From a virus: a stretch of DNA of 64,000 nucleotides. Every line of letters starts with the position of its first letter. Positions within the stretch are counted from its first letter, which is position 1. A program made the translations under genes and the position numbers. The stretch spans positions 94,813 through 158,812 of the IMG/VR virus record IMGVR_UViG_3300033146_003955; one strand, given 5' to 3'. Under the pieces are notes generated by a model, which saw nothing but the letters and a program-made list of their open reading frames with translations, did not search any database and was not told the DNA's origin. Positions 13 to 62,987 of this stretch are shown one piece after another.

Positions 13-210
13 ATGGTTAATAGATTAAATAATATATCTATGAGTGGGAAAGATGAAAGTAATTTTAATATAATAAAAAAAAGAATATTACAGAAAGTAA
101 TCTTAAGTAGTAAAGACAAACAAGTTTTAAATGATTTATTAAAGGAATACCTATCAGATCATGATAGAATATCTATAGCTATGAAATATTTAAAAAAGGA
201 TGGAAAATGA
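13..210 (+). CDS. hypothetical protein (may be the 3' end of a gene starting before the window)
   Basis: ORF overlaps the next start (ATGA). Confidence 0.5.
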   Translation: MVNRLNNISMSGKDESNFNIIKKRILQKVILSSKDKQVLNDLLKEYLSDHDRISIAMKYLKKDGK

Positions 211-1133
211 AACATTTATTAATAGATGCTAACAATATCGCATCACTTAGCTTTTTCCGCGCTAAATCTATTATGATGAAAGAAATAAATTCTAAAATTG
301 ATATTGATAATGAAAAAGAATTAATTACGGAAGTTCAAAAAAATATTATAGGTTTTTCTACACATATGTTTTTTAACAAACTTCATAGTATTATGAAGTT
401 AAACAAAGGTGCTAAAGTTTATATTATTTGGGATGGTAAAGGCGGTTCTAATTGGAGAAAAAAAATTAATTCTGACTATAAAGCAAATAGGAAACATGGC
501 AATGATAGTTTCTACCCTGTATATATTAATATGATGAATAAATCAAAAGAAATTCTTAAATCTTATCCTGTTGTTCAATTTACAAAGCAAGAAGCTGAAG
601 CTGACGATTTAATTTATTCTATAGTTAAATATGTAAGTAACAACGTTGAATCAGAAGTAGCAACAAATAAATTAATTGATAAATCATATATTAACGTAGT
701 TTCTACAGATACAGATATGATACAGCTGGCACAGCAATTTTCAAATGTAGATATTTATAACCCTATAACTAAAAAAAATCAAGTAATACCAGAATACAAT
801 TATGTACTTTACAAATCTATAGTTGGTGATAAAAGCGATAATATTGTTGGCGTTCCAAGATACGGAAAAAAGAAAGGAGCAAATGCAGCGATAGCTGGTA
901 TTGATTCTATGAAAGAAGAATTTCACCCTCTTATTAAAAATAATTTATTAATTATTGATATGGCACAAAATCCTAATCAAAAAGATAATTATTCATATAT
1001 AAGTGAAATTATTAAAGGAACGAAAATAACTCTTGATATTGATAAAATTAAAAAACACTACTTTGATTTAAAATTAAAATCACTTCTTGATGGATTGGAT
1101 ACTACATCTAAACTATTAAAGAATCTTCTATAA
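207..1133 (+). CDS. 5'-3' exonuclease / flap endonuclease (T4 RNase H, T5 D15-like)
   Basis: LIDAN, WDG, YKANR, EADD, STDTD and GDKSDNIVGV (H3TH) motifs. Confidence 0.9.
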   Translation: MKHLLIDANNIASLSFFRAKSIMMKEINSKIDIDNEKELITEVQKNIIGFSTHMFFNKLHSIMKLNKGAKVYIIWDGKGGSNWRKKINSDYKANRKHGNDSFYPVYINMMNKSKEILKSYPVVQFTKQEAEADDLIYSIVKYVSNNVESEVATNKLIDKSYINVVSTDTDMIQLAQQFSNVDIYNPITKKNQVIPEYNYVLYKSIVGDKSDNIVGVPRYGKKKGANAAIAGIDSMKEEFHPLIKNNLLIIDMAQNPNQKDNYSYISEIIKGTKITLDIDKIKKHYFDLKLKSLLDGLDTTSKLLKNLL

Positions 1134-1136
1134 AAT

Positions 1137-1214
1137 ATATTTCACTCCATTTTTACTATATTTTGGTAATTATATTAAGATAATAGTATATAATAAATAA
1201 GTGGAGTAAAATAT
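1137..1214 (+). promoter_or_regulatory. RBS-sequestering hairpin with AAGATAA promoter motif in the loop
   Basis: 1137-1152 ATATTTCACTCCATTT pairs with 1199-1214 AAGTGGAGTAAAATAT (1 mismatch, 1 G-U), covering GGAG and the start codon; AAGATAA at 1177-1183. Confidence 0.6.
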
Positions 1215-1614
1215 GTTAAAAACTGTCAATTTAATTAATTTTGGAGCTTTTTTAAAAGAAGACATAATAAACGCAATAGGAGAAGAACACTCCATTTTTG
1301 TAAAACAGATAAATATAAAAAATACATCTCTCAACTTGAAAAAACACTCAACGTTTATTCAAGTACACGATCTTGTTGAACAAAATAAAGATTATTTTTC
1401 TGAAGACTTCATCGTTAATCTTCCTGGACTTCCAATATTTGCAGCAATGCTTATCGCTGAAATACATGGCTTAACTGGAGCATTCCCTAAAATAGTAGAA
1501 TGTGTTAAGGATTATAGCCAAGAAGGTATGTTCTCTGAATTTAAATATAAACGATTATACAATTTAGATAGAGAAAGAACACAATCAAGAGAAAATTATA
1601 AAAAATTTAACTAA
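1213..1614 (+). CDS. Csx15-like (CARF-related) protein
   Basis: LINF...IVNLPGLxxxAAxLxAExHGxxGxFPxIV...NLxxxRxxxR matches the Csx15 pattern; 133 aa. Confidence 0.7.
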   Translation: MLKTVNLINFGAFLKEDIINAIGEEHSIFVKQINIKNTSLNLKKHSTFIQVHDLVEQNKDYFSEDFIVNLPGLPIFAAMLIAEIHGLTGAFPKIVECVKDYSQEGMFSEFKYKRLYNLDRERTQSRENYKKFN

Positions 1615-1669: not shown

Positions 1670-1948
1670 ATGAATGTTGATAAATTTTTTAATGAATTAA
1701 ATGAAAAAACTTGGCGCAACGAAAAACGTTTTTTTGTAGAACGCAAATTTGACGCTTTAATTGAATACCTTCAAGAGAATAAAGAAGAAGTACTTGATGA
1801 TATAATCGATGATTTAAATGGTATGGAGAAGATGCAAACTGAAGATAAAGAAATATTTGATTATAAAGAGTTTGACAAATGGGTAAATGTATTTGCTAAA
1901 GACAATATGTCTGCTTGGCTTGAAGAAGTAGACGAAGAAGAAGAATAA
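1670..1948 (+). CDS. acidic hypothetical protein, possible head-internal protein
   Basis: N-terminal KFFNELNE; AAGATAA upstream at 1632-1638. Confidence 0.6.
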   Translation: MNVDKFFNELNEKTWRNEKRFFVERKFDALIEYLQENKEEVLDDIIDDLNGMEKMQTEDKEIFDYKEFDKWVNVFAKDNMSAWLEEVDEEEE

Positions 1949-2734
1949 ATGGATTTATCCACACTCGCAGCTTCTATAGTTAACCAACCTAAATCATCTA
2001 AAAAAGATTATCAAACTTTAATGCCTCAACAGCAGCAAACACGTTCTTATTCAGATGAACCCACTATAAACTATTCAGAATTAATTATAAATGTAACTCG
2101 ATTCAAATTTGGTAAAACTAGACTTGGTTGGACTCTTCAATATAAAATAAATTATCCTCTTAGTTCTTTTAATAGGAAAACTACAGACTTAAGACAAATA
2201 AAACAATATGCTAAAGATTACTTAGAAGCAAATACTGATAAAAAAGATTTGCCCTATATTGATATTACTAAAATAAGTGAATATTTGATTGAATATCGTT
2301 TTAATCATAAAAAATGGATTAAAGCTAATTTCAGTAGAAAACCTCATTTTATGCCTCCAACTACTTTATATTGGAAATATAAAATAGATATACCTAGAAT
2401 AATTTTTGTTAATCAAGTAGGTTCAGATTTACAAAAATTTATAGAAGAGATGTTTTATGAATATATAGATAAACGAGCCAATCTCTTGAAACATAAAGAA
2501 TTCTCCTTTGTGCAGCGAATGGTTGCAAAACTTTTCACTTTTAAGTGGGATAGAGTAAATATGAGAATGTATGCACATTTAAAATATTCTGTTATTTTAG
2601 GTTCTCTTGCTATATATATGTCCCTTTACCATAAAAAAGATGCCAATAAATATGATATTAAAAAACTTCAACGTAAAGCTTCAAATCTTGGTGATATAAA
2701 GAAACTTGATAAATATATAAAGAGGTTGAAATGA
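1949..2734 (+). CDS. hypothetical protein
   Basis: 261-aa ORF abutting its neighbours. Confidence 0.7.
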   Translation: MDLSTLAASIVNQPKSSKKDYQTLMPQQQQTRSYSDEPTINYSELIINVTRFKFGKTRLGWTLQYKINYPLSSFNRKTTDLRQIKQYAKDYLEANTDKKDLPYIDITKISEYLIEYRFNHKKWIKANFSRKPHFMPPTTLYWKYKIDIPRIIFVNQVGSDLQKFIEEMFYEYIDKRANLLKHKEFSFVQRMVAKLFTFKWDRVNMRMYAHLKYSVILGSLAIYMSLYHKKDANKYDIKKLQRKASNLGDIKKLDKYIKRLK

Positions 2735-11622: not shown

Positions 11623-14600
11623 ATGGCTAATTGTGATAACACTTCTAATGATAGTGGTAACCTTGGCGTGGGACCAGGTGTTCCAAATCCTAATATTGAT
11701 TCTGAGATTTTAAAACCAGAACAAAATATCCCCCCTCGAGAAAGTTATAAATTGGGTGAAAATTTTTTAGAACCTGATAATAAAGCTCAGAAAGGTATAC
11801 GTACTTTAGGTTCTTTCGGTACTCAAAAAAATAAAAATGAAAATGACTTAACACTTCCAACTGGTCAGAGAATAAAAAATGAACAAGAAATACAGCAAGC
11901 TATAGAAAGAAGAGGTAAGGACGAAGCTGAACCTCAAATGCCTATATCTTCTACAAGTAAAATAGATGAAAAAATCACTCAAATAAAAGATTCTGAAACT
12001 AAAAAATCTGTTGATATTGCTAGCACAGAAACTCGACCAAATAAAAATTTAAATGAAATATCCATTTCTTCAGATTCTAAATTAAAAGAATTAAATTCAA
12101 TAAACATTAAATCTGATTCTAAAAAAGATGAGCAAGAAGTATTAGAAAGTGAAAATAGAGATATAAAAATAGGTGATCAAATAGATTTGGTAAGTAGTAG
12201 ACAGATTAAAGATTCTTCTATTACTATAACAGGTGAAAAAAATTTTAAAAAAGATGAAGTGGTGGAAGATACTAATACTCATGAGAAAAAAGATTCTCCA
12301 TCTATGGAAGTTAGCGGAGCTAACGGAAATCAAGTAAAAGTAGAAAATGATATAAATACAACTGCTCCTGTTGTAAATGATAAATTTTTTAATGAGAAGG
12401 ATTTAAATGTAGTTGATATATTTAAAAATTCTAAAAAAGACGAAGTTGTAAATGTACACGACTCAACTGGGAAAAAGTCCGAATCAGATTTGGGTCCAGA
12501 AGAAGATCACACTCTCAAGTTTGAGATGGATATACCTTCAACAATTTCAGTTAATAAAACTGAAGAAGAAATTGCTGGTACTATACCTACTGAAAAGACT
12601 GAAGAAGAAATTGCAGACACTACATCTACTGAAAAGACTGAAGAAGAAATTGCAGACACTACATCTACTGAAAAGACTGAAGAAGAAATTGCAGACACTA
12701 CATCTACTGAAAAAGATTTACAAGAAATTGCAGACACTATATCTACTGAAAAAGATTTACAAGAAATTGCAGACACTATATCTACTGAAAAAGATTTACA
12801 AGAAATTGAAGAAGCTACAGCGTCTCAGGGTAAACCAACTGATGTTCAAATAACAACAGAAGCATCCAGCTCTGTTAATGCTTCACCTATAACTATATTA
12901 GAAGCAGAAACAGGTGGAAGTGCTTTATCTTATAACGTAAACACTCCTGCTTCAGAACAAATAATAGAGAACGATTATGATACTACCTCGGTATTAAGAA
13001 ATAAAGATGTAGCTGACAATAGCGCCTCTCGTGCAGATTCTGAAGGTAACGTTACTTTTATTGATGAAAATGGGAATGTAAATACAACAATTAGAAAAAT
13101 TAAAGATTCAACAAATACTGTATCGGCGTTAGCTTCTGCTGGTTTTAATCCTACAACAACTAATGGCGAAATTGATACAGAATTGTATGACAATGCTGTT
13201 AAGGTACTATATGAGGACAATGTATTATCTAGTAATTATAGTACAAATAATAATGCTAATAAAAATTATGAATATGAATTAAATACTAACATAAAAGCTA
13301 ATAGAGAAATAGAATCTAATGAAGGTTTACTTGAAAAAGAAACATTAAAACAGGAAACAACAACTGATACCCATTCTAAAATAGGAGATGTGTTATCAGA
13401 TCCCGATCAAAGAAACGAGAGATACGATTATACAGAGTTGGAAAATGATGGGCAGGTAATAAAAGGAAGCGGCGATGCTATCGGTGCAAGAGATTTTAAA
13501 TCTATAGACGTAAGTAGTGATGGAATAATAAATCAAGAATTATATCCTAATGATCCTGTTAATATACCTGAAAGTGCTAATGTCATTGATAAAAATATAT
13601 CTAATATATATCATGAAAATTTTATATATGATGATTTTGGTAATGAAAGAAACACTGATATAAGTTCAGAATCTAATGTTGGTTTATTCGATAGTGAAAC
13701 TCCAAAAAAAGAAGTAACAGATCCAACAAATCAACTAAATTTAGAAAAACCTAATGATCAACTTCAAAATAGGCCAGAATACGTAGGTGATAATAATACA
13801 AATGATGAAATAAAAGGTATAAGAGATAATAAATTAAATGGTATAACAAATGAAAATATCATTCACTCAAATTATGAAGCTTCTATAAAAATTGATAATG
13901 CAGTATTAAATGCTGGTGAAGAAAGAGAAAGTGGTCAAGAAAATACTAATCATGATTATAGTAATTATATAAGTAGCAGAAATGTAGAAAACGATTTTAT
14001 AGATACTACTGTACATGAACAAAACACACCTCGTAAAACAGTTGTACCTCCTAATAATATAATTGGCAACACTGAACCTTTAACCCAATTACAAGACCGT
14101 TCGGAATACGTGGGTGACAACGATATAAACGATAGAATAAAAGGTGTAAGAGATAATAAACTAGATGGCATAACAAATGAAAATATTATTCACTCAAATT
14201 ATGAATCTGAATATAAAATAAATGAAGCAGCTCAGTTTAATGCTGTGACTACAGATGATGTTATTTCAGGTCAAGACAAGAGTAATTTTAATTATGATTC
14301 TGTACAAATTAAGAGACCGTATTCAAAATTATCAGAGAGTACAATAAATTCAGAATCATTTGTCCACGGTGTTACTCAAACTGATGAAACAAATGTTGTA
14401 TACCAAGACGATGATACTGATGGATATACTGGGCAAGTTAATGTCCAAGATGTTCTTACTGTAACTCGATTAGATAGAAACGTTGAATATACACTTAACG
14501 ATATAGATAAGACAAAATTAAAAATAGATGCAACTACAGTTAATAGCGAAGGTGATATTACAGATATTGATTTTAATAATTATAATCAACAACCTGGTGA

Positions 14601-17600
14601 TTTTGATGACGGAAATGCTAACGAATATATCCCCAACAGAGACGCTATAAATTATGTCATAGACGACCCGGCGACAGAAGATGTAAATGAGATGGCTGAT
14701 GCTGCTATATTCCAGAAACAACAAGTTGATAATTTTGACTATACAGATATATTAGTTAAGTCTTCAGGTAAGATTTCTGGTACTCCAAGTGTTAGAGGAG
14801 CAAAAGATTTCAGATATATTGGTGCATCAAAAGTACCTGGAAGTATTGCGACAACTTCAAATCAGAAATATGCTGATCTCTTAGATACAAAAAACATAGA
14901 TTATGGTTCTGCTAAAGTGGAAGAAGCTTTTCTTGCAGAATTTGGGTTGGAAACTATTGAGGAGTGGAAAACTCAAGGTGTTTATTTAGAAAACGTACGT
15001 AATAAAATTGGTGAAGTGGATTTTAATCTATATAGAGAAGACAACAATGGTGATTATTCGTCCATTCAAGAAACAACAAATTTTACATATAGTACGTTAG
15101 CTTCCGATGGTAGTGAAATAACTATCTTCAATATTAAAGAAGGTGATATCGCATCAAAAAATAGTTTCTATAAAACATTAGAAGGTAATAATGAATTTGG
15201 TGAAAATGATTATGCCTTCCCTACAGCTATTGCTATTAATAATAATGTTGATATAAATTCAGATAGATGGCAAGAAACTACATCACGTGATATAATAATG
15301 AGTGATTTATCAGAAGTAGATTGGTTTACATTGGTTGCTGCTGGAATGGGTGTTACGAGTGCTTTAAGTACAGCGTCTAATTTAGTGGATACTATTGAAG
15401 ATCTTAGTAATCCTCAAGGTTTTAGTGATTTCAGTATAAATGATGATACACAAAATGTGTTGAGACGGTTAACTTTCGTAAATGCAGCGTCTATAGTTTA
15501 TAATGTTAAAAGTAATATCACATTAGAAGGTAGTGCAGGTTCAGGTGTTCTTGGTTATGTTGATTCAGTTTCAGAAGTTGCAACTTCATTTGGAGCATTA
15601 CAAAACCACCCTGCTGCATGGACAATGTCTCGCCTAAGAGCTATTAATCCTAAAAATGAACGTGATGTATTACCAGCGACAAATGTTGCTATCCAAGGCT
15701 CACGAGGAGAAGTAAAGGGAGATGCTAGTGGAAATTGGAATGGATGGCTTGATGGTGAAGAGTGGGATATAGAAAATTCATTCGCAGCTAAATATTCTTC
15801 TATGGCAAATTTTCGGGATGCTGTTATAGAAGGAAAAGCTGGCCAGTTAAATATATTTAATAGTGATAGAAAAATACGGCCTAGTTCTGGTACAGAAGGC
15901 AAAGACGCTATGTCTTATGATGAGTGGGACGGTCAATGGACAGAAATTGATGGTATGACTTTTATAAATGAGTGGACTGGAAATGTTAATATAACCGCTA
16001 GTTGGTTACAACCAACAGAATATCAAGCTATTTATAATTTTAGTCAACATGTTAATGGAAAAGATAAAATTGATGTTGAAAAATTATGGAACATCAACAA
16101 AGATCGTACCAAACATAGAAAAGGTGCTTATACTAGTAAGTTGTGGGGTTTGGCAAGTGAATTTTTTACACCAAATGCTGATGGAATTTATAGACAGGAT
16201 CTTAATACTAATATAGAAAGTAATTTCAATTCCGCTAAAGATGATAATATTAATAATTTTCCAGCTCCGTTTACAACAAATAGTATCTATATGGCTGAAG
16301 ATGGTGATACCAAAGGTACGCTTGGAAGTTATAAAATTTTATTTCCAGATGTTGAAAAAGGATGGCACGCAAATAATACCACTTATTATATTAATAAAGA
16401 TGTTTTAACCAAAATAAATGATAAATCGACAAAAATATTTGATGGAATGTTTCATGTTAAATCTGATCAAACCTTCTACGGTGAGTTAATGGCTAATGCA
16501 TCACTTGGTGCCGGTAAAGTAATTTATACAGATTATAAAGGAAAATCATTAAATCCGACTGTAGATAATGAACTTGATATAGATCCTCACTTTATCGATG
16601 CTGGACTTAATGATATATTGATACCATTAACTGGTGTTGAAAATCTTACAGGTAAAGATTTGTTTTATAAAGAATTGATTAAAGATGATAAAAACGAAAA
16701 TTTAGAGGGTTTTAAACATTTTAATTGGACAAATTGGAAAAACAGTCAAGATAAGCATAATATATTTCAAGGGCTTTGGAATATAGATACTATGGCCGAG
16801 GGTAATGAAGCGGTTAATGAACGTATGGCTATCTCTAATATTAAAAGATACGAAACTATAAACATCTTCTATGACGAGTTGATGACTAATAAAACTAATA
16901 TTACAGAAAATAATTATCACCCTGAATATCAAGATGCAGAAGGTAATTTAGGTGATCCTCATCTCGGACAATTTCAAATTGATTATACTACTACTGGTGG
17001 TACAGAAACACCTATATATAATACTGGTATAGCTCATGCGCAAGGCAAAGATTTATTTGCTTATAATATGGCAACACAAACTTTTGGTAAAGAAGAAGAT
17101 TTATTTTCATGGTCACGTATTGGCTCTTTGAGTGAACAAGATACCGATTATAATTATTGGAATATGATGGGTATTATTAATAACGAAAATAGATTGGCTG
17201 GTGGAGAATTTCAAAATATTAAAACAATAAAAAATAGTATAAATATTGTTAATTTTAAATATCGAGGTAAGTTATCAGGTTCAGGATTAACAAATAAGTC
17301 TGCTAATAATAGATTTTCATACGATGATTTTAGATTTATGGATAGTAGTAATCAAATTACTAAAACTATAAATATATTAGATGAAAATGGAGCAATTACT
17401 AACAGCAATCTTGGTGAAGATTTAGCGTTTTTTAATGATGATAATTATGCTCTGTCTGCTCTTGCTGTTAATGTTCCTACTATTGTTGAATATGATAAAT
17501 TTACATTTGGAACAGATGAAACTGGTAGTAGAGATGGGATAACAGATAAATTAATAGAATCAGCTCCTTTCGCTCAATCTGCATTTGGAGGAACACAACC

Positions 17601-18879
17601 TCAACCGGGTAAATATCCAACGATAACAGCAGAAACAAAAAATAACGCATTACTTAATACTATTGCAATTGACATGACACCTCCTGGTAATACAGATAAA
17701 AATGGAATTAATGATAATAGTTTTATTGAAACAGATATCGGTTTAATAAGAAAGGGTGGAGAAGTTGATTTTTATGCATCGAAATATAGTACAACTGATG
17801 GCACAACGCCCTCCACAAGAAATGATTCCGCCAAACGGCCATTAAAGAAAGAAATTAAACCACAATATTATGTTGATAAAGAAGTTGTCAATTATGGCAA
17901 AGGGGTAACGAAAAATGCTGATGGTACAAATGTAAATGTAGTAACAGGAGAAATAACAAAAACAGCTTTGCATGGTGCAATGGTTGCATTCGGTGCTGAC
18001 GTCGACGATAACAATACCAGATTTGTGGCATATAATGACTCTAACTCTCAACTTGTATATACAGATACTCAAAAAATACAAGCAGAAACAAAATCTGATT
18101 TTCATATGAAAATAAAAAATAAACTTGATTTTTTTCTAAAAGATAACAGGAAACAAACTTTAAAAGAAAAATGTATTATAGAAAACTATGTTGACGACCT
18201 AGGATATATACTCGTTTATCCAGATTCTTCAAAAGAATATGATATTAACAATAATATGTTATTTACGATCCCATTTCAATTTAATCCCGAATTATCTGGT
18301 GAAACACGTTCTGCAGCTTGGGCAACACATACCGCTATTGGCCGAACTAATGAATTTCTTGTATGGGGTAATACATCAGCTCGTTCTCTTCAGTTTAAAA
18401 CGACTATTGCAATTATTGCCCCAGAGAGTGGTAAAGATAGCAAAACAGGATCTGCAGATATATCCTTTAAAGATACGTATAATGGTAGTAATGGGCGTAT
18501 GAATCCAATTTATGATGGTTGGGGACAGAGTTGGAATGAAACAAATATGTATAAAGTATTAAATGCGTATCGCGGTCTAGTTTTACCAGTAGATTATTCA
18601 ACAGATAGAGCAGACACAAGTAGTAATATTATATCTCCTCCAGTTTTATCATTTACATTTGGAGAAGATATAACACAAACAAGATATTCAGGAGTTGAAG
18701 GACTTGTTAAATCTAAGTGGATTGCTACTGATGTTAATATCGATGCACGTATTGAAGCTGGATATACTGCAAAAAGAAATCCTAGAGTTTACGATATTAC
18801 AATGACATTAAAAGAAGTATATGGTAATTTTAGAAGTTTTCAAACTCATAAACAACTTATATCGTCTGGAGGACAATAA
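11623..18879 (+). CDS. giant baseplate / tail-tube-initiator-like protein with long acidic N-terminal extension
   Basis: C-terminal IPFQFNPE..ETRSAAW....IGR.....WGNT.ARSLQF...PPVL resembles tube-initiator domains; lies between tape measure and wedge genes. Confidence 0.65.
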   Translation: MANCDNTSNDSGNLGVGPGVPNPNIDSEILKPEQNIPPRESYKLGENFLEPDNKAQKGIRTLGSFGTQKNKNENDLTLPTGQRIKNEQEIQQAIERRGKDEAEPQMPISSTSKIDEKITQIKDSETKKSVDIASTETRPNKNLNEISISSDSKLKELNSINIKSDSKKDEQEVLESENRDIKIGDQIDLVSSRQIKDSSITITGEKNFKKDEVVEDTNTHEKKDSPSMEVSGANGNQVKVENDINTTAPVVNDKFFNEKDLNVVDIFKNSKKDEVVNVHDSTGKKSESDLGPEEDHTLKFEMDIPSTISVNKTEEEIAGTIPTEKTEEEIADTTSTEKTEEEIADTTSTEKTEEEIADTTSTEKDLQEIADTISTEKDLQEIADTISTEKDLQEIEEATASQGKPTDVQITTEASSSVNASPITILEAETGGSALSYNVNTPASEQIIENDYDTTSVLRNKDVADNSASRADSEGNVTFIDENGNVNTTIRKIKDSTNTVSALASAGFNPTTTNGEIDTELYDNAVKVLYEDNVLSSNYSTNNNANKNYEYELNTNIKANREIESNEGLLEKETLKQETTTDTHSKIGDVLSDPDQRNERYDYTELENDGQVIKGSGDAIGARDFKSIDVSSDGIINQELYPNDPVNIPESANVIDKNISNIYHENFIYDDFGNERNTDISSESNVGLFDSETPKKEVTDPTNQLNLEKPNDQLQNRPEYVGDNNTNDEIKGIRDNKLNGITNENIIHSNYEASIKIDNAVLNAGEERESGQENTNHDYSNYISSRNVENDFIDTTVHEQNTPRKTVVPPNNIIGNTEPLTQLQDRSEYVGDNDINDRIKGVRDNKLDGITNENIIHSNYESEYKINEAAQFNAVTTDDVISGQDKSNFNYDSVQIKRPYSKLSESTINSESFVHGVTQTDETNVVYQDDDTDGYTGQVNVQDVLTVTRLDRNVEYTLNDIDKTKLKIDATTVNSEGDITDIDFNNYNQQPGDFDDGNANEYIPNRDAINYVIDDPATEDVNEMADAAIFQKQQVDNFDYTDILVKSSGKISGTPSVRGAKDFRYIGASKVPGSIATTSNQKYADLLDTKNIDYGSAKVEEAFLAEFGLETIEEWKTQGVYLENVRNKIGEVDFNLYREDNNGDYSSIQETTNFTYSTLASDGSEITIFNIKEGDIASKNSFYKTLEGNNEFGENDYAFPTAIAINNNVDINSDRWQETTSRDIIMSDLSEVDWFTLVAAGMGVTSALSTASNLVDTIEDLSNPQGFSDFSINDDTQNVLRRLTFVNAASIVYNVKSNITLEGSAGSGVLGYVDSVSEVATSFGALQNHPAAWTMSRLRAINPKNERDVLPATNVAIQGSRGEVKGDASGNWNGWLDGEEWDIENSFAAKYSSMANFRDAVIEGKAGQLNIFNSDRKIRPSSGTEGKDAMSYDEWDGQWTEIDGMTFINEWTGNVNITASWLQPTEYQAIYNFSQHVNGKDKIDVEKLWNINKDRTKHRKGAYTSKLWGLASEFFTPNADGIYRQDLNTNIESNFNSAKDDNINNFPAPFTTNSIYMAEDGDTKGTLGSYKILFPDVEKGWHANNTTYYINKDVLTKINDKSTKIFDGMFHVKSDQTFYGELMANASLGAGKVIYTDYKGKSLNPTVDNELDIDPHFIDAGLNDILIPLTGVENLTGKDLFYKELIKDDKNENLEGFKHFNWTNWKNSQDKHNIFQGLWNIDTMAEGNEAVNERMAISNIKRYETINIFYDELMTNKTNITENNYHPEYQDAEGNLGDPHLGQFQIDYTTTGGTETPIYNTGIAHAQGKDLFAYNMATQTFGKEEDLFSWSRIGSLSEQDTDYNYWNMMGIINNENRLAGGEFQNIKTIKNSINIVNFKYRGKLSGSGLTNKSANNRFSYDDFRFMDSSNQITKTINILDENGAITNSNLGEDLAFFNDDNYALSALAVNVPTIVEYDKFTFGTDETGSRDGITDKLIESAPFAQSAFGGTQPQPGKYPTITAETKNNALLNTIAIDMTPPGNTDKNGINDNSFIETDIGLIRKGGEVDFYASKYSTTDGTTPSTRNDSAKRPLKKEIKPQYYVDKEVVNYGKGVTKNADGTNVNVVTGEITKTALHGAMVAFGADVDDNNTRFVAYNDSNSQLVYTDTQKIQAETKSDFHMKIKNKLDFFLKDNRKQTLKEKCIIENYVDDLGYILVYPDSSKEYDINNNMLFTIPFQFNPELSGETRSAAWATHTAIGRTNEFLVWGNTSARSLQFKTTIAIIAPESGKDSKTGSADISFKDTYNGSNGRMNPIYDGWGQSWNETNMYKVLNAYRGLVLPVDYSTDRADTSSNIISPPVLSFTFGEDITQTRYSGVEGLVKSKWIATDVNIDARIEAGYTAKRNPRVYDITMTLKEVYGNFRSFQTHKQLISSGGQ
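12556..12808 (+). repeat. 39-bp tandem coding repeat (13 aa, STEKTEEEIADTT / STEKDLQEIADTI), about 6 copies
   Basis: visible in DNA and translation. Confidence 0.9.
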
Positions 18880-20125: not shown

Positions 20126-21736
20126 ATGATATTAAAAGTAAATGGTATAACAGTTGAAACGAAAATAAAATATACAACTGTTAGAGGTGCTAATTCCATT
20201 AAAATAAATGGAAATTATATATTAAAAAAAAATGATAATATAATATTTAAATGTTGTATATGCAATAAAGAAAAAAATCAAAAATTTAGATTTAAACCCA
20301 AATTTATAGAAGATGATATAATATGTGATTCATGCAATAGAAGTATAAATAATCCATTTAAAAGAAATGATGTTAAAGAAAAGATCAAAAATACAAATTT
20401 AAAACGTTATAACGTTAAAAATTCAATGCAAAATAAAGAGATATTAAAAAAAGCACAACAAAAACAAAAAGATAATAATAATGGTGTTCTAGCCTTCAAT
20501 TCAGATAAACAAAAAAAAACCTTAAAAAAAAAATATGGTAATGAAGTAATATTTAAAACGCAACACTTTAAAGAAAAAACAAAAAAAACTTTATTAAAAA
20601 ATTATGGCGTTGAAAATCCAATGAAATCTGATATTATTAAAAATAAAACCAAATCTACAATGAAAAAACGATATGGAAACGAAATAATATATAAATCTAT
20701 TTATTTTAAAAAAAAATCTAAAAAAACAATACAAGAAAGATATGGTGTAGATTATATTATACAAAATCCCGAAATTAAAGAAAAAATAGAAAATACCATG
20801 ATTACGCGTTATGGATCTAAAACATTTTTAACATCAAATAGATATATTGCTATGGGAATTAATACTAATACATCTAAAACTCATTATGAAATAATTTCAT
20901 TTATTAAAAGTTTTAATATAACAAATATTAAAATAAATAATAGAAAAATTATATCTCCTATGGAACTAGATATTTATTTGCCTGATCATAATATCGCTAT
21001 TGAATTTGATGGTCTTTACTGGCACTCTGATAAGTTTAAAGAGAAAAACTATCATATCAATAAAACCCTTCAGTGTGAGGCTAAAAACATTCATCTTATA
21101 CACATCTTTGAAGATGAGTGGGCTAACAAGAGAGGAATAATTGAAGCTCGGTTAAAAAATCTTTTAGGTTTAAACTCTAAAAGAATTGGAGCCAGAAAAA
21201 CTATAATAAAAGAAATTAGCCCTAAAGTTAAAAATGCTTTCTTAGAAAAACATCATATACAAGGAGAAGATAAAAGTAATATTAAGTTGGGTGCTTATTA
21301 TAGGAACGAATTAATTGGTGTTATGACTTTTTCTAAACCTAGAATATTTATGAGCAAAAAAGCTAAAGATGGAAGTTGGGAACTTAGTAGATTTGCTACT
21401 ATACCGGATACATATACACCAGGATTAGCTTCTAAAATGCTTAAATATTTTGAGAGAGGTTGGAATCCTAAGCTGATAGAATCATTTGCAGATAGAAGAT
21501 GGAGCCAAGGTAATTTATATAAAAAATTAGGTTTTGAACTTGCAAGTCAAACTAATCCTAATTATTATTATTTTAAAAATTTAAAACGATGGCATAGATA
21601 TAAATTTAGAAAATCAGAACTTACCAAGTTTGATAATTATACACCAGAAAAGACTGAGAAAGAAATAATGAACGAAGCCGGATGGGGTAGAATATATGAT
21701 TGTGGTAATTATAAATTTACAAAAGATTATTTTTAG
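20126..21736 (+). CDS. putative homing endonuclease: YGV repeats + PD-(D/E)XK nuclease + Mom/GNAT-like C-terminal domain
   Basis: KKYG repeats; ELDIYLP..IAIEFDGLYWHS; FLEKHHIQG...ELSRFA...SFADRRWSQGNLYKKLGF...IYDCG. Confidence 0.75.
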   Translation: MILKVNGITVETKIKYTTVRGANSIKINGNYILKKNDNIIFKCCICNKEKNQKFRFKPKFIEDDIICDSCNRSINNPFKRNDVKEKIKNTNLKRYNVKNSMQNKEILKKAQQKQKDNNNGVLAFNSDKQKKTLKKKYGNEVIFKTQHFKEKTKKTLLKNYGVENPMKSDIIKNKTKSTMKKRYGNEIIYKSIYFKKKSKKTIQERYGVDYIIQNPEIKEKIENTMITRYGSKTFLTSNRYIAMGINTNTSKTHYEIISFIKSFNITNIKINNRKIISPMELDIYLPDHNIAIEFDGLYWHSDKFKEKNYHINKTLQCEAKNIHLIHIFEDEWANKRGIIEARLKNLLGLNSKRIGARKTIIKEISPKVKNAFLEKHHIQGEDKSNIKLGAYYRNELIGVMTFSKPRIFMSKKAKDGSWELSRFATIPDTYTPGLASKMLKYFERGWNPKLIESFADRRWSQGNLYKKLGFELASQTNPNYYYFKNLKRWHRYKFRKSELTKFDNYTPEKTEKEIMNEAGWGRIYDCGNYKFTKDYF

Positions 21737-25656: not shown

Positions 25657-28600
25657 TTATTTTCTCCATGCCAATTCTATTGTAAAGACAGCATCATGTA
25701 ATGCAGCTCCTTGATTAGTAACATATACACTAATATAATCACCTTCATTTAAATCATAATTTAAGGAATTATTTAATACTTTACCGTTTGAATCTGTATT
25801 TAAAGAGAAGGCTAAATTACCATTTACTTCTACCTGTATTTCTTTATTATTTATTGAATTAGAGGTTTCTACTGATACTCCTAATATACATGCATCATGC
25901 AACATTTTAATTCCTGATCTCCAATCCTTCATCCCTCCAGGTAAAGATAACGTTGTACCATCAGAATTATTATTTTTTGCGTATACTACCAACTTTGAAG
26001 GACTCAACCATTTATTCCTATTGCCATCATATATATAAAGTATATTATCTATAATTGATATCTGTCCTGCACCAAGATTAGTAGTTGGAGTAGCTGCTAA
26101 ACTAGTTAATTCTAATGGTGCGTCTGTTGAGGTCGAAGCATTTAATTTTACCGGTCCATCATCAACTGTAATTTCTTTTCCATTATCATATGCTTCATCT
26201 AATGTCGAGGAGGTTAAACTTACCTGATTTCTTAATTCTTGTAAAGCGTCTTGTACGTTATTAGATGTTATACCACCAATAAGAGATACACCGATCAATG
26301 CTGCTCCCGATATTCCGGAATCTGAGTTTAGCTCACTCTCAGTATAATATCTATCGTCGTGTATATGAACTAAATTAGCTTTTCCAGCTAGAAGACTATT
26401 TATTTCATTTTCTGTATAATATCTATCGTCATGTAAGTGAGTTGTAAGTGAATAATTACTTAAAAAAGTATCTATTTCACTTTCTGTATAATATAAATTA
26501 TCATGGTTGTGTACTAAAGTGGCATATCCTAAAAGAATAGTATCAACTTCTGTTTCTGTATAATATAGAGTATTCAGTTGTCCACCATTTAATTCTACTT
26601 TAGAATAATAATTTGATACTATTTCACTTTCTGTATAATATCTATCATCATGTGTATGGGAAGTTAAAGAATAGTTATCTAAGAGGGTATCAACTTCTGT
26701 TTCTGTATAATACCTATCATCGTGTGTATGGGAAGTTAAAGAATAATTACTTAATAAAGTATCAACTTCTGTTTCTGTATAATACCTATCATCATGTGTA
26801 TGAGATGTCAAAGAATAGTTATCTAAGAGGGTATCAACTTCTGTTTCTGTATAATACCTATCATCATGTATATGAGATGTTAAAGAATAATTACTTAATA
26901 AAGTATCAACTTCTGTTTCTGTATAATATCTGTCATCATGTATATGAGATGTAAGAGAGTAGTTATTTAGGAGAGTATCAACTTCTGTTTCTGTATAATA
27001 TCTGTCATCATGTATATGAGATGTAAGAGAGTAGTTATTTAGGAGAGTATCAACTTCTGTTTCTGTATAATATAAACTATCATGGTGATGTCTGCTGGAT
27101 GCATCATTACCATCAACTAAATCAGATTTTTCATATCTATTTATATGTCTATAATCTTCTGTGTCTAATCCTAATAATGAATTATGAAAAATTCCTCCAT
27201 TATTAAAATCCAACCAAACCCACTCTGTTCCATCCCATCTATAAAAACCTTCTTCTCTATATCCAGTAAATTGTTCATTGTTAACAAGCTCTTGTAATTG
27301 AATATCAGAATAAGTTGATTTTTCTAAAAACAATTCATCTATTTCACCATCTATTCTATGACTATAATATTTACCGATATCAAGTACATTAGGAATATTC
27401 CCTAAAGGACCATCAAAGACACCTTGTCCTATTACTATTGCATTCTTCCATAATTTTATTGTTGTTCCATCAAATGTTATTGCTACATGCGTCCATTCGT
27501 TTAATTTTATTCTTGAATATGATATTACTTTTATTAAAGGAGTTGTTTCGCTTTTTAACCACACTTCAACTCTACCATCTCTAATTAACAAAGCCCAAGC
27601 ATTAGCAGAAGAACCATTGCCCCAAGCATCAAATATAGACATAACCTGATCATATGAGTTAGGTTTAAGCCAACAACCAGCAGTAAATGCCCCACCAACA
27701 TTAAAATCAGGAGAGTTCGGAACTCTTACATATCCATCATTTAAATCACCTGACTGGCCGTTTCTGCCTGCTTGATAAGTTATTCCACCACCGTGGTAAC
27801 TAGTTGGGTGGCCTATCTCATCATTAATATTATTATCAAATTTCATAAAAAAAGCAGTATTACTATTTTGTACATATGCTCCACCATAGTTTGGTGGTTC
27901 AGGAATTCCATTTCTTTCCCTTACAATGTAGACATCTCCTTCGGTATTTCCAGTTAAAGGTAAATCTCTAAATTGATCATGTGAACCTTTAATTCCTTTA
28001 GACTCTAGACCAACAAGCATTGAATCAATCGTCGGCTTATCATAATAATTGTTTACAATTTCTGTTTCTGTGTAATAAAGAGTATTTAACTGTCCGCTAT
28101 CCAACTCAATTTTAGAATAATAATTAGTAGATATTTCACTTTCTGTAAAATATCTATCATCGTGAGTATGTAAAACAGTATTATTTCCACCTGTAAGTTC
28201 AGTGTATTCTAGAGCTGTTAAATGTAGATAATCTCCAATATTTAAATTATTTAATGAATTATGATCTGAAGTACCTATATTATTAGCAAGAAAAGTCCAG
28301 CCACTTCCGTCCCATCTATAAAAACCTTCTTCATTTATGCCTACAGTTGTTTTGACTATATATATAGTTCCTATGTTTTGCGTTATAGGAAGATTACTAT
28401 AAGTATCTACATATCCTTTAATTCCAAATGAAGCAGCTGCAATTATTAAATCAATTTCATTTTCTGTATAATATCTATCGTCATGTATATGAGATGTCAA
28501 AGAATAATTACTTAATAAAGTATCAACTTCTGTTTCTGTATAATACCTATCATCGTGTATGTGAGATGTAAGAGAGTAGTTATTTAGGAGAGTATCAACT

Positions 28601-29199
28601 TCTGTTTCTGTGTAATATAGAGTATTCAGTTGTCCATCATTTAATTCTACTTTAGAATAATAATTTGATACTATTTCACTTTCAGTAAAATATCTATCAT
28701 CATGAACATGAGTTGTAAGAGAGTAATTATTTAAGAGAGTATCAACTTCTGTTTCTGTATAATATCTGTCGTCATGTATATGAGGCGTTGCAGGAAATGT
28801 TGCAGGAGTATTTACTATATTAGTCCAATCAACTTGTGATTGTCCCGGGGATAAAAGTTCCGCTTTCCTGTAATACCAATCATCATGATGATGCCAATTA
28901 CATTGAGTACCCGACGTTAAAGAAAGAGCTTGCATGTCTGTAAGATTATTTACTTCAGCACCTTCTTCTATTGTATCTAATTTATCTCCGTCTACAGATA
29001 CATCTCGGCCATCTATTATCATTGTATGAGGATCTAATTGATGTTCATCATCACGCATAATAAATATTGGTATTTGCGCGTCTACTAATTGCCCAGTATG
29101 TTGTTCTCCACCTAATTCATGGGGTGAGGACATAATATCAACCGGTAAACGGTGATTGATTGGTGGGATGCCGTCAAGTTCGTTTATATTAAAAGGCAC
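25657..29199 (-). CDS. fibre protein with HDDRYYTETE repeats and LamG domain
   Basis: DGRDVSVDGDKLD.IE.GA fibre motif, 24-aa repeats, WTHVAITFDG LamG, shared C-module; AGGAG and AAGATAA upstream. Confidence 0.8.
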   Translation of the reverse strand: MPFNINELDGIPPINHRLPVDIMSSPHELGGEQHTGQLVDAQIPIFIMRDDEHQLDPHTMIIDGRDVSVDGDKLDTIEEGAEVNNLTDMQALSLTSGTQCNWHHHDDWYYRKAELLSPGQSQVDWTNIVNTPATFPATPHIHDDRYYTETEVDTLLNNYSLTTHVHDDRYFTESEIVSNYYSKVELNDGQLNTLYYTETEVDTLLNNYSLTSHIHDDRYYTETEVDTLLSNYSLTSHIHDDRYYTENEIDLIIAAASFGIKGYVDTYSNLPITQNIGTIYIVKTTVGINEEGFYRWDGSGWTFLANNIGTSDHNSLNNLNIGDYLHLTALEYTELTGGNNTVLHTHDDRYFTESEISTNYYSKIELDSGQLNTLYYTETEIVNNYYDKPTIDSMLVGLESKGIKGSHDQFRDLPLTGNTEGDVYIVRERNGIPEPPNYGGAYVQNSNTAFFMKFDNNINDEIGHPTSYHGGGITYQAGRNGQSGDLNDGYVRVPNSPDFNVGGAFTAGCWLKPNSYDQVMSIFDAWGNGSSANAWALLIRDGRVEVWLKSETTPLIKVISYSRIKLNEWTHVAITFDGTTIKLWKNAIVIGQGVFDGPLGNIPNVLDIGKYYSHRIDGEIDELFLEKSTYSDIQLQELVNNEQFTGYREEGFYRWDGTEWVWLDFNNGGIFHNSLLGLDTEDYRHINRYEKSDLVDGNDASSRHHHDSLYYTETEVDTLLNNYSLTSHIHDDRYYTETEVDTLLNNYSLTSHIHDDRYYTETEVDTLLSNYSLTSHIHDDRYYTETEVDTLLDNYSLTSHTHDDRYYTETEVDTLLSNYSLTSHTHDDRYYTETEVDTLLDNYSLTSHTHDDRYYTESEIVSNYYSKVELNGGQLNTLYYTETEVDTILLGYATLVHNHDNLYYTESEIDTFLSNYSLTTHLHDDRYYTENEINSLLAGKANLVHIHDDRYYTESELNSDSGISGAALIGVSLIGGITSNNVQDALQELRNQVSLTSSTLDEAYDNGKEITVDDGPVKLNASTSTDAPLELTSLAATPTTNLGAGQISIIDNILYIYDGNRNKWLSPSKLVVYAKNNNSDGTTLSLPGGMKDWRSGIKMLHDACILGVSVETSNSINNKEIQVEVNGNLAFSLNTDSNGKVLNNSLNYDLNEGDYISVYVTNQGAALHDAVFTIELAWRK
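26340..27085 (-). repeat. 72-bp tandem coding repeat (HDDRYYTETEVDTLLxNYSLTSHx); second block about 28460-28780
   Basis: TATCAACTTCTGTTTCTGTATAATA recurs every 72 bp. Confidence 0.9.
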
Positions 29200-40284: not shown

Positions 40285-40312
40285 GGTAAAAGGGACCGAA
40301 GCCCCTCTTACC
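40285..40312 (-). terminator. UUCG-capped hairpin after CCA C-terminal gene
   Basis: GGTAAGAGGGG-CTTCGG-TCCCTTTTACC on - strand; weak U-tract. Confidence 0.6.
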
Positions 40313-41447
40313 AGTTTTTTGCGATTGTCAGTGCTTCTTCAAAAGTGGTAATCTCTTCACCAAGCTGAAGTTCACTGATGTGATTAAGAATCTCTTTGAA
40401 AAGAGGTCCTGGCTTGAAACCCATATCGATAAGATGCCGGCCAGAAATAAGTGGTTCTGGCAGTTCAATCTGATCTTCAAGAGTCCCAACAAAGGATTTA
40501 ACTTTCTCAACCCAATCAAGTTTAGTCAGACAAGGCTCAGCACAAATTGCACTTTCAGTATCTGCTTTAGAAACAATAACAAGACTATCAAGTCTCTCAT
40601 CTGCAACAAGTCTACGCAGAGTTGATTTCTTCATTTCCTTAGCATATTTAATTCTCATATGATTTTCAACGAGCCAAACAATATCATTAGTTTCCTTACT
40701 TGAGAATCTCAGCCTGTTAAGTATGTCCCTTGCAATTTCAGCACCAGCTTTATCATGACCATGAGCTTTAATCATACCATCTTCGATAGTAAAAGTGGCA
40801 GGTTTTCCAATGTCATGAAGCAGCGCAGCCCAAAGAAGAATAACATTATCAGTCTCCTTCCTAACAGCATCAAGAGTCATCATAGAATGTACACCTACCG
40901 AACCTTCACTGTGCCATTTAGGTGCTTGTTCACATCTCCAAAGTTTCTCAACTTCAGGAAGGATTGGTTCAAGCAGACCAGATGCTCTAAGCATTTCAAT
41001 ACCAATAGATGGTTTAGGAGCCATAAGCATTTTATTCATTTCATCGTGAATTCTCTCCTGAGATACAGAATCAATTTCACCAGCATGTTTCTTAATTGCT
41101 CCCCAAGAAGCCTCATCAAGTTTGAAATCAAACTTCGAAGTGAAGCGGATCGCCCTAAGCATACGAAGTTTATCTTCTTCGATTCTTCTCTTAGGGGAAC
41201 CAACAAATTTAACCAGTCCGTTCATAAGGTCTTTTTCACCATGAGTAAAATCAAAAATCTCTTCACTAATAGGATCAAAGAAAAGTGCATTCATAGTAAG
41301 GTCTCTTCTCATAGCATCTTCCTTCATTGAAGAGAACTCAACACTATCAGGCCTACGACCGTCACTTTCCAAAGTTATACATTCACCTTCTGGATGGATG
41401 CAGTGCCCCTCAAACCATTTACATTTATTACACATTGTTTTGTTCAT
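40308..41447 (-). CDS. cca: class II CCA tRNA nucleotidyltransferase, C-terminal half with HD domain, fused behind a Cys-rich leader
   Basis: DGRRP, RRDLTMNAL, EDKLRMLRAIRF, ERIHDE, H.EG.V..H, LLHDIGKP, GPLFKEIL. Confidence 0.9.
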   Translation of the reverse strand: MNKTMCNKCKWFEGHCIHPEGECITLESDGRRPDSVEFSSMKEDAMRRDLTMNALFFDPISEEIFDFTHGEKDLMNGLVKFVGSPKRRIEEDKLRMLRAIRFTSKFDFKLDEASWGAIKKHAGEIDSVSQERIHDEMNKMLMAPKPSIGIEMLRASGLLEPILPEVEKLWRCEQAPKWHSEGSVGVHSMMTLDAVRKETDNVILLWAALLHDIGKPATFTIEDGMIKAHGHDKAGAEIARDILNRLRFSSKETNDIVWLVENHMRIKYAKEMKKSTLRRLVADERLDSLVIVSKADTESAICAEPCLTKLDWVEKVKSFVGTLEDQIELPEPLISGRHLIDMGFKPGPLFKEILNHISELQLGEEITTFEEALTIAKNW

Positions 41448-41554: not shown

Positions 41555-41692
41555 ATGGAAAGTGAAAAACAAGTTAGATTGGATAAGGAGACATGGGAGA
41601 CATTGAAAATAATGTCTGTTAAAGAAAATAAATCAATGAAACAAGTTATAAAGGAAATGGTGAATGATAGAGAAAGTAATAATAAACAATAA
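41555..41692 (+). CDS. ribbon-helix-helix DNA-binding protein, 45 aa (not in ORF track)
   Basis: MESEKQVRLDKETWETLKIMSVKENKSMKQVIKEMV; AAGGAG RBS; AAGATAA at 41524-41530. Confidence 0.7.
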   Translation: MESEKQVRLDKETWETLKIMSVKENKSMKQVIKEMVNDRESNNKQ

Positions 41693-42704
41693 AGAAATTA
41701 TAGTTAAAAATTATAATGAAATTATACATTCTCATAAATATGGTAAAGAAAAAATTACTCTATATATAAATAATGTCTATTATCTTAAAACAAAAGATTT
41801 TATCCAGTATACTTGTGATGGGTGTGGTAATGATGAAACTAAAGAATATGCTTATAATTATAATAAATATCACCAAAATGAAGTATTGTGTGGTGAATGT
41901 TTAAAAAAGAAATCAAGATTAGAAAAATATGGCGTTGAAAATTTCTTTCAAAAAAAAGAAATACATAAAAAAGCACGGATAAATAGATCAACACAAGAGG
42001 CTAAAAATAAAACTAAACAAACAAAATTAAGTCGTTACGGAACTGAAAATTATAATAATAAAGAAAAAACAAAACAAACATGCATAAAAAGATATGGCGG
42101 TAATAGTCCTATGTCTGACCCAGTAATTAAAGGAAAATTAAACATATATTGGAATAATTTAAAAAATGATGATTATAATACCAAGGTAAAAAATAAACGT
42201 AAAGAAACGTGTCTCAAAAAGTATGGAGTAGAATACACGACACAAACTGATATAATGAAAGAAAAGTCTAAACAAACTTGTTTAAAGAATTATGGTGTTG
42301 AATATCCAGCTCAAAATCCAGAAATTCATAGAAGACAGATGTCACGGTTTGGTAAAACTAATACATTAAAACAAATAAATGAAGATTTACATTATCAAAC
42401 TATTCCTGAATTAGAATGTATTGAATATTGCCAATTTAATAATACAAATATATGGGATGGTCCTTCTATACCTTACATATTTGAAAATAAAAAACATATC
42501 TATCATGTAGATTTTGAAACTGATGAATACATAATAGAGATAAAAGGAAGTCATGGCTGGTATAAAAAGAATTTAGCGTCAGGTAAAATAGAAGCCAAAA
42601 ACAAAGCAGCACAAGAATATGCTGCTTCTGTAAATAAAGAATTTTTGTTTCTATTAGATATTAAAAATTATCTTTTTTTAGGTTCAAAATTTTTACAAGA
42701 ATAA
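41664..42704 (+). CDS. free-standing putative homing endonuclease (zinc ribbon + YGVE repeats + PD-(D/E)XK)
   Basis: CDGC..CGEC, TCLKKYGVE repeats, YHVDF...IIEIKG; antisense, between the two cca halves. Confidence 0.8.
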   Translation: MIEKVIINNKEIIVKNYNEIIHSHKYGKEKITLYINNVYYLKTKDFIQYTCDGCGNDETKEYAYNYNKYHQNEVLCGECLKKKSRLEKYGVENFFQKKEIHKKARINRSTQEAKNKTKQTKLSRYGTENYNNKEKTKQTCIKRYGGNSPMSDPVIKGKLNIYWNNLKNDDYNTKVKNKRKETCLKKYGVEYTTQTDIMKEKSKQTCLKNYGVEYPAQNPEIHRRQMSRFGKTNTLKQINEDLHYQTIPELECIEYCQFNNTNIWDGPSIPYIFENKKHIYHVDFETDEYIIEIKGSHGWYKKNLASGKIEAKNKAAQEYAASVNKEFLFLLDIKNYLFLGSKFLQE

Positions 42705-62981: not shown

Positions 62982-62987
62982 GATCAT

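Follow-up and report, generated by a model that had tools for sequence, protein, structure and literature searches.

Csx15 was characterised in 2026 (10.64898/2026.01.21.700848; 10.64898/2026.10.26.761840). Its dimers stack head-to-tail around cA4 (Chi et al., 10.64898/2026.01.21.700848), and two types of behaviour were described in that study: PfCsx15 sequesters cA4 and cleaves it little or not at all, and CliCsx15 is a slow cA4 nuclease, for which His13 in the head and His90 are of importance. In PfCsx15, the H11A substitution abolished both the sequestration of cA4 and the multimerisation (10.64898/2026.01.21.700848). The same authors reported that about 25% of the bacterial csx15 genes are orphans and that Csx15 had been seen in no phage genome, and they argued that sponging is ill suited to the large amounts of cOA that type III systems produce (10.64898/2026.01.21.700848). 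Klimavicius et al. (10.64898/2026.10.26.761840) found the ring-nuclease activity of Csx15 to be broad and filament-dependent. In HaCsx15, catalysis depends on H8 in the head and R125 in the tail; phosphates are bound by R118 and R122, the latter also stacking on adenines A1 and A3, and H8 and F106 stack on adenines A2 and A4. The H8A and R125A variants lost cleavage, with the cA4-induced multimerisation intact (10.64898/2026.10.26.761840). Canonical Csx15 also accepts cA3/cAAG, and cellular Csx15 domains function as sensors when they are fused to effectors, for example to Schlafen in Cash (PMC13462974; sequence P0121). As for viruses, the October 2026 paper describes a few homologues, "rare... 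predominantly restricted to prophage regions", and the name AcrIII-3 was given there to viral Csx15 by a proposal made without experiments (10.64898/2026.10.26.761840).

The DNA analysed here, referred to as the window, makes up the final 64 kb of an IMG/VR virus record of 158.8 kb that carries tail, baseplate and replication genes. Within the window, a 5′-3′ exonuclease, an HNH endonuclease, a DNA-end-protector-like protein, a tape-measure-like protein and a baseplate spike are encoded, and no tRNA was found. The initial annotation had pointed out a Csx15-like gene with no cas genes or array in the window, and this description holds: there is no CRISPR-like array in the window, where the tandem repeats lie inside long ORFs or are short runs of two to three copies, and there is no Cas10 in the 159-kb record, the sole match being a 16.6-bit one to an HD domain inside a CCA-adding enzyme. 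AcrIII-1 (DUF1874) was not found in the genome either. DNA of this stretch is present in metagenomes of marine sediment (0.43 of its words) and hydrothermal vents (0.27), and no RNA sequencing run containing it is listed.

The Csx15-like gene occupies positions 1213–1614 of the plus strand and encodes a protein of 133 aa. It starts with ATG, and a Shine-Dalgarno sequence, GGAG, is located at 1203–1206, six bases 5′ of the start. The Csx15 motifs by which the gene had been recognised are all present in the protein: IVNLPGLPIFAAMLIAEIHGLTGAFPKIV at residues 67–95 (including NLPGLPI at residues 69–75), NLDRERTQSR at residues 117–126, which fits the pattern NL...R...R, and NFGAF at residues 9–13, which contains the head motif N9-F10-G11-A12. 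The form NFSHP, given in the initial annotation as the usual one, is literal in some canonical members, and others have NFGH or NFSGH; in the present protein, the His is replaced by Ala12. The proposed identity was tested by HMM and structure searches, and the results concur. One is the match to NCBIfam CAS_Csx15 (NF040560) at 51 bits (E 1.5e-13), the curated cut-off of this model being 35 bits. Another is the match to the independent Csx15 model of PADLOC (E 6.4e-12). Furthermore, a profile built from the protein and its relatives matched, among the PDB sequences, CliCsx15 (9TEU, 5.3e-14), the Csx15 domain of Cash (9YLU, 5.3e-12) and PfCsx15 (9TET, 4.2e-10). No fitting model was found in Pfam or PHROGs.

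The fold agrees with these results. The AlphaFold2 model of the protein (pLDDT 91) has five strands with flanking helices, and the Atlas model was superposed on three Csx15 clusters with TM scores of 0.81–0.87 over 122 residues, as against about 0.6 for CARF, SAVED and other Rossmann-like families. Among solved structures, Foldseek against the PDB returned only weak CARF/SAVED rows (E 4e-3 or weaker), and the best hits of VIA-align were SAVED/CARF domains at Z 5–7. In both cases the library apparently predates 9TEU and 9TET; since the Csx15 crystal structures were thus apparently absent from the solved structures compared, the assignment of the Csx15 fold rests on the Atlas comparison. Taken together, the ORF is real and is a member of the Csx15 family, its likeness to Csx15 being far beyond what chance would give.

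The functional residues were mapped by MAFFT alignments with 43 distant representatives obtained by an exhaustive profile search, together with an HMMER alignment to 9TEU. At positions 12, 85, 122, 126 and 129, where canonical Csx15 has H, H, R, R and R, the phage protein has A, H, R, R and Y. The catalytic head His (H8 of HaCsx15 and of CsCsx15, H13 of CliCsx15, H11 of PfCsx15) corresponds to Ala12, and the catalytic tail Arg (R125 of HaCsx15) corresponds to Tyr129. The R-x3-R-x2-R triad (R118, R122 and R125 of HaCsx15) is accordingly incomplete: the two phosphate-binding arginines are retained as R122 (HaCsx15 R118) and R126 (HaCsx15 R122), and the third position is Y129. The stacking aromatic residue (F106 of HaCsx15, Y113 of CliCsx15) is retained as F110, the ligand-contacting L71 of HaCsx15 corresponds to I75, and the central His of the LHG motif (H82 of PfCsx15, H90 of CliCsx15) is retained as H85. 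Judging from the aligned positions, the phage protein lacks both of the published catalytic residues.

These replacements are not peculiar to one sequence. In all 28 close homologues, which are 55–87% identical in the alignment, the head position is occupied by A, S, T or V without exception, position 129 is Tyr or Phe, and R122 and R126 are invariant; H85 is changed to Ser in the most distant members of the close clade. Within this close group, K44, S46 and H52 show little or no variation and H45 occurs frequently; the conservation of H52 and H45 does not extend to the wider phage clade, which has V/I and N, respectively, at these two positions. The two adenine-stacking positions, F110 and R126, are kept in most of the phage clade, and the positions of R122 and H85 are not conserved across it. 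When counted over the tree, the head His occurs in 0 of the 28 rows of the clade without it and in 18 of the 19 canonical rows.

In the maximum-likelihood tree, the canonical His-bearing Csx15 sequences are split from the clade containing the phage protein with a support of 99/96. The 28 rows that lie above one basal His-bearing sequence and have no head His form one clade (support 99/88; the tree is unrooted), and a single loss of the head His would be the simplest reading. The gene context was examined in all four main sub-branches (P0001, P0008, P0093, P0097, P0098, P0099, P0103, P0105 and P0110), and all nine clade members with informative contigs were found to be phage-like and to lie in replication or recombination modules. 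The neighbours across the clade include 5′-3′ exonuclease, gp32, an SLT domain, Mre11/Rad50, RecA, DnaB and PolIII-alpha, as well as Toprim primase, PD-(D/E)XK nucleases and T4 baseplate genes. The 5′-3′ exonuclease stands beside the Csx15-like gene in the window, L002 and L014; Mre11/Rad50 does so in L015 and L019, with an overlap with the Rad50-like gene in L019. In distant members, the Csx15-like gene abuts or overlaps the downstream gene, and in three loci (L031, 1349–2550; L032, 7001–8094; L033, 804–1897) it abuts or overlaps a gene for a PD-(D/E)XK (Cas4-like) nuclease. The layout of these three loci, which belong to one sub-branch without the head His, recalls the CARF plus PD-(D/E)XK effectors Can2 and Card1, split into two genes.

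As for the distribution, there are 95 clusters at an identity of at least 56%. The homologues are located on phage contigs of 82–499 kb, with six further IMG/VR contigs of 82–388 kb; the close relatives L002–L004 (JGI contigs of 437–481 kb) show 73% identity and a shared gene order, and P0008 was found on contigs of up to 498,865 bp. The lineage thus reaches megaphage size, and the 159-kb record may be less complete than the 80% estimated by CheckV. No DNA or protein match for the Csx15-like gene was found among the GenBank phages, nor was one obtained with the canonical query P0123, so that no cultured phage with this gene was found in that set. Two apparent exceptions were rejected. The match of P0113 in Erwinia jumbo phages (E 0.4) is spurious and runs antisense to an annotated gene. 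Two GTDB matches that appeared to be cellular copies, namely L012 (CAZYLG010000001.1, 117 kb, in a 'Thermoplasmatales archaeon' MAG) and L013 (CAZLSE010000008.1, 39 kb, in a 'Gammaproteobacteria' MAG), are syntenic with the region of the phage Csx15-like and tail genes; these are phage contigs inside MAG bins, probably mis-binned, and their taxon labels are for this reason uninformative on the host.

The gene order around the Csx15-like gene is also conserved. Upstream is the 5′-3′ exonuclease of the FEN/RNase H type (207–1133, plus strand; Pfam 5_3_exonuc_N, 5e-17; phrog_107, 2e-27), which is a conserved neighbour, syntenic in L002–L004, L006 and L014, and which marks a replication/recombination module. 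Downstream is a gene for an acidic protein of 92 aa (1670–1948, plus strand), assigned as a conserved neighbour from its syntenic homologues, which show 29–55% identity in L002–L004, L006–L008, L012 and L013; it has no match in Pfam, PHROG or PADLOC. This gene is followed by that of a 261-aa protein (1949–2734, plus strand), identified by synteny as a conserved companion: its homologues adjoin the Csx15-like gene in every locus of the close clade and in L014. The 261-aa protein matches nothing in Pfam, PHROG or PADLOC, its AlphaFold2 model (pLDDT 75) has no match in the PDB, and its Atlas model is poor. Across the whole clade, the downstream partners are not homologous. The order of exonuclease, Csx15-like protein, 92-aa protein, 261-aa protein, HNH endonuclease and tail genes is kept in genomes of 27–40% GC. 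Among the relatives, the identity of the Csx15-like protein is 56–73%, as compared with 25–60% for the neighbours other than the HNH endonuclease, and its gene shows pN values of 0.12–0.34 against saturated pS values of 0.6–0.97. The gene is under strong purifying selection, and its place is among the core genes and not among accessory genes acquired in recent times. The suggestion of the initial annotation that a host regulator had been captured fails in the sense of a recent capture, which is ruled out: the clade is an old and monophyletic one, all nine informative contexts are those of phages, and large phages hold the gene as a conserved part of their core.

RNA folding indicated a hairpin in the leader of the Csx15-like gene (1134–1217, plus strand). 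The hairpin of this 79-nt leader (−23.5 kcal/mol, z −4.5) pairs the stretch following the exonuclease stop codon with the GGAG at 1203–1206 and the AUG, burying both. In its loop lies the phage motif AAGATAAT (1177–1184), 36 nt 5′ of the start of the Csx15-like gene. The motif is found 25–38 nt 5′ of several genes, including the giant gene at 11623 and the fibre-like gene at 29199 on the minus strand, and the element looks like a phage promoter. Among seven folded relatives, six have the motif 5′ of the homologous gene (L002, L007, L008, L012, L013, where it is imperfect, and L014), and four have a hairpin that hides the Shine-Dalgarno sequence (L002, L007, L013 and L014). The PHROG annotation of the other genes preceded by AAGATAA gave no pointer to early versus late expression. 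The recurrence of the hairpin and of AAGATAAT in distant relatives supports a separate note on this leader, which deals with a translational switch.

Several other features of the window are described here. The giant ORF mentioned above (11623–18879, plus strand) encodes 2418 aa in the tail module, contains a 39-nt tandem array at 12559–12819 (about 6.7 copies, 93% identity) and is preceded by AAGATAATAGTA, an element that it has in common with the Csx15-like gene. The gene at 25657–29199 (minus strand) encodes an 1180-aa protein with a lectin-like Laminin_G_3 domain and a weak PHROG match to a long tail fibre, and carries 72/144-nt tandem repeats at 26540–27073 and 28450–28784. A 575-aa DNA topoisomerase IB of the eukaryotic type is encoded at 61260–62987 on the minus strand (Topoisom_I_N, 2e-64; Topoisom_I, 8e-64; Topo_C_assoc, 1.5e-21), and its full three-domain architecture is unusual in a phage. 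A nucleotidyltransferase of the CCA-adding/poly(A)-polymerase type with an HD domain is encoded at 40308–41447 (minus strand). In the more distant relatives L005 (3642–5198), L009 (1637–2950) and L011, its homologue is found some 1 kb upstream of the Csx15-like gene, and it is split into two genes in L005 and L011. Two DUF7487 proteins are encoded on the plus strand at 20126–21736 and 41664–42704. The former also has a Mom-like domain and matches PHROGs of homing/HNH endonucleases (1e-121). In L012, a DUF7487 homologue has been inserted immediately behind the Csx15-like gene in the reverse orientation, which suggests that the DUF7487 gene is a mobile element.

Based on the residues, we tentatively regard the phage protein as a non-cleaving binder of cyclic oligonucleotides that would serve as a sponge against type III CRISPR and/or CBASS. 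The protein of the Csx15 fold, having lost the ring-nuclease chemistry, would probably still bind an adenine-containing cyclic oligonucleotide (cA4, perhaps cA3/cAAG) and, by analogy with the solved Csx15 filaments, would hold it where the head of a dimer faces the tail of the following one. The phage protein would in this way soak up the second messenger of the host, so that the cOA-activated effectors of type III CRISPR and/or CBASS would stay off; the action would be stoichiometric, as that of a sponge, and not enzymatic. Binding of the ligand, formation of filaments and the effect on host immunity are all inferred here, and the target could equally be CBASS signals. That sequestering had been favoured over cleaving in the initial annotation fits the aligned residues, in which the counterparts of H8 and R125 are replaced (A12, Y129) and those that stack on the ligand or bind phosphates are kept. 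Because the H8A and R125A variants of HaCsx15 still multimerise without cleaving, the phage protein resembles a natural double mutant of H8 and R125, and PfCsx15, with its little or no cleavage, provides a precedent for a non-cleaving binder. Further points in favour are the membership of the Csx15 family, the absence of the head His from all 28 close homologues and throughout one supported clade, the retention of F110 and R126 in most of the phage clade, and the strong purifying selection. The loss of the head His may also cost binding, since sequestration was lost in the H11A variant of PfCsx15. Counted against the binder are also that the wider phage clade does not conserve R122 and H85, that the gene has a core position in replication/recombination modules, unlike the variable islands of many anti-defence genes, and that Chi et al. 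argue against sponging in view of the large cOA output (10.64898/2026.01.21.700848).

A serious alternative, which we hold to be somewhat less likely than the binder, starts from the core position: a protein of the Csx15 fold may serve the replication/recombination of the phage, apart from the cOA signalling of the host, for example by binding a nucleotide, an oligonucleotide or a partner and thereby modulating the adjacent nucleases. Such a role would suit a core gene that is better conserved than its neighbours, is followed by the conserved companion at 1949–2734 and lies, at every informative locus, in a replication/recombination module (exonuclease, Mre11/Rad50, PD-(D/E)XK nuclease, gp32, RecA, DnaB, PolIII-alpha and primase); it would also suit a protein whose catalytic residues are gone and whose canonical ligand site is partly variable within the clade. 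However, all the characterised relatives of Csx15 bind cyclic oligoadenylates, the two adenine-stacking positions are retained here, and no replication protein family matches the protein. The position of a gene alone is, moreover, weak functional evidence, and counter-defence genes are often expressed from early or middle modules.

It is improbable, in our estimation, that the clade without the head His is a ligand-gated, filament-forming regulator within the replication/recombination module of large phages and no immune sponge, one that would sense host cOA or a nucleotide made by the phage and signal to the neighbouring nucleases or the 261-aa partner. If so, a virus would employ a signalling receptor of the CRISPR type for its own decisions. 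We also give little credence to a sensor by which the cOA alarm of the host would be read through ligand-induced filaments and relayed to the 261-aa neighbour or an adjacent nuclease, changing the programme of the phage. The conserved pairing with the 261-aa gene, the abutting or overlapping downstream genes of the distant members and the sensing by Csx15 domains fused to effectors, as with Schlafen in Cash (PMC13462974), are in line with it; but members across the clade do not share a homologous downstream partner, the 261-aa partner has no recognisable effector fold, and no fused forms of the clade were found among longer proteins, although this last point is weak evidence. Equally hard to credit is a retained ring nuclease in which catalysis has moved to residues of the sub-clade (for example H52/D53, K44/H45/S46 or H85), giving an enzymatic anti-CRISPR like vCsx15: the conservation of K44, S46 and H52 and the frequency of H45 in the close homologues, the retention of H85, whose counterpart H90 contributes to the activity of CliCsx15 (10.64898/2026.01.21.700848), and the expectation that viruses prefer enzymes over sponges speak for it, yet H8A or R125A alone abolishes the activity of HaCsx15, both residues are replaced in the phage protein, and the wider phage clade does not keep H52 and H45.

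That viral Csx15 may act in counter-defence has already been proposed in print, without experiments (10.64898/2026.10.26.761840). The available parts of the two 2026 papers, in which Csx15 is said to be missing from phage genomes or to be rare among viruses and sponging to be unfit against type III CRISPR, do not mention a divergent, catalytically disarmed clade that is confined to phages and is both common and core in the large ones. The present analysis indicates that, in uncultured phages of large and very large size, a divergent Csx15 branch without the cutting residues is common, belongs to the core genes and is strongly conserved. Should its members trap cA4 or cA3, type III CRISPR signalling would for the first time be seen to meet a counter-measure of the sponge type, and a filament-forming ring nuclease would have a natural form that only binds. 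If the role is another one, a receptor fold of the CRISPR type would have been recruited into the DNA metabolism of phages.

When compared with other countermeasures, the proposed binder resembles Acb2, Acb4, Tad1 and Tad2 in its mode of action, in which a small, oligomeric protein made by the phage sequesters an immune messenger stoichiometrically. The folds of these four are unrelated to that of the phage protein, their sponge action has been shown experimentally, mainly on CBASS and Thoeris signals, and none of them uses ligand-bridged filament stacking. AcrIII-1 (DUF1874) and AcrIII-2 (vSAVED) are likewise small virus proteins that remove cA4, and vSAVED has a head-to-tail composite site and a fold related to Csx15; unlike the phage protein, both are enzymes with intact catalytic residues, and AcrIII-1 has no sequence relationship to it. 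There is also vCsx15/'AcrIII-3' (Skoll URC17498 and more than 20 IMG/VR sequences; 10.64898/2026.10.26.761840), which in the published description is a virus-encoded Csx15 proposed to counter cyclic-nucleotide signalling. Its members, including that of the Lokiarchaeota virus Skoll, were obtained by BLAST with canonical queries and are described as rare and mostly located in prophage regions, and the proposal takes them for active ring nucleases. The clade without the head His differs from the vCsx15 so described in being divergent (phmmer E 0.13 to CliCsx15), in lacking the catalytic residues and in being common and core in large phages of the lytic type; the present protein is encoded by a virus as well, and its A12 and Y129 argue against ring-nuclease competence.

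Within the cellular family, PfCsx15 (9TET) is similar in that it stands alone outside a CRISPR locus and is a proposed sponge acting by cA4-induced head-to-tail stacking. It comes from bacteria, and neither the head His (H11) nor any of the three arginines is lost in it; the loss of binding by its H11A variant calls for caution as to the binding by the phage protein. HaCsx15, CsCsx15 and CliCsx15 (9TEU) share with the phage protein the family, as assigned by HMM and predicted fold, the size of about 125–135 aa, the stand-alone, five-stranded Rossmann-like form, the N-F-G ending strand 1, the NLPGL loop, the central His, the stacking aromatic residue and two of the three tail arginines. The difference is that the head His (H8/H13) is changed to Ala and the tail Arg (HaCsx15 R125) to Tyr in a protein that comes from a lytic-looking large phage without cas genes. 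The identity between canonical Csx15 and the phage protein is about 21–33%, and the phage clade stands separate (99/96), with E96, K/R99 and K/R114 as conserved residues of its own.
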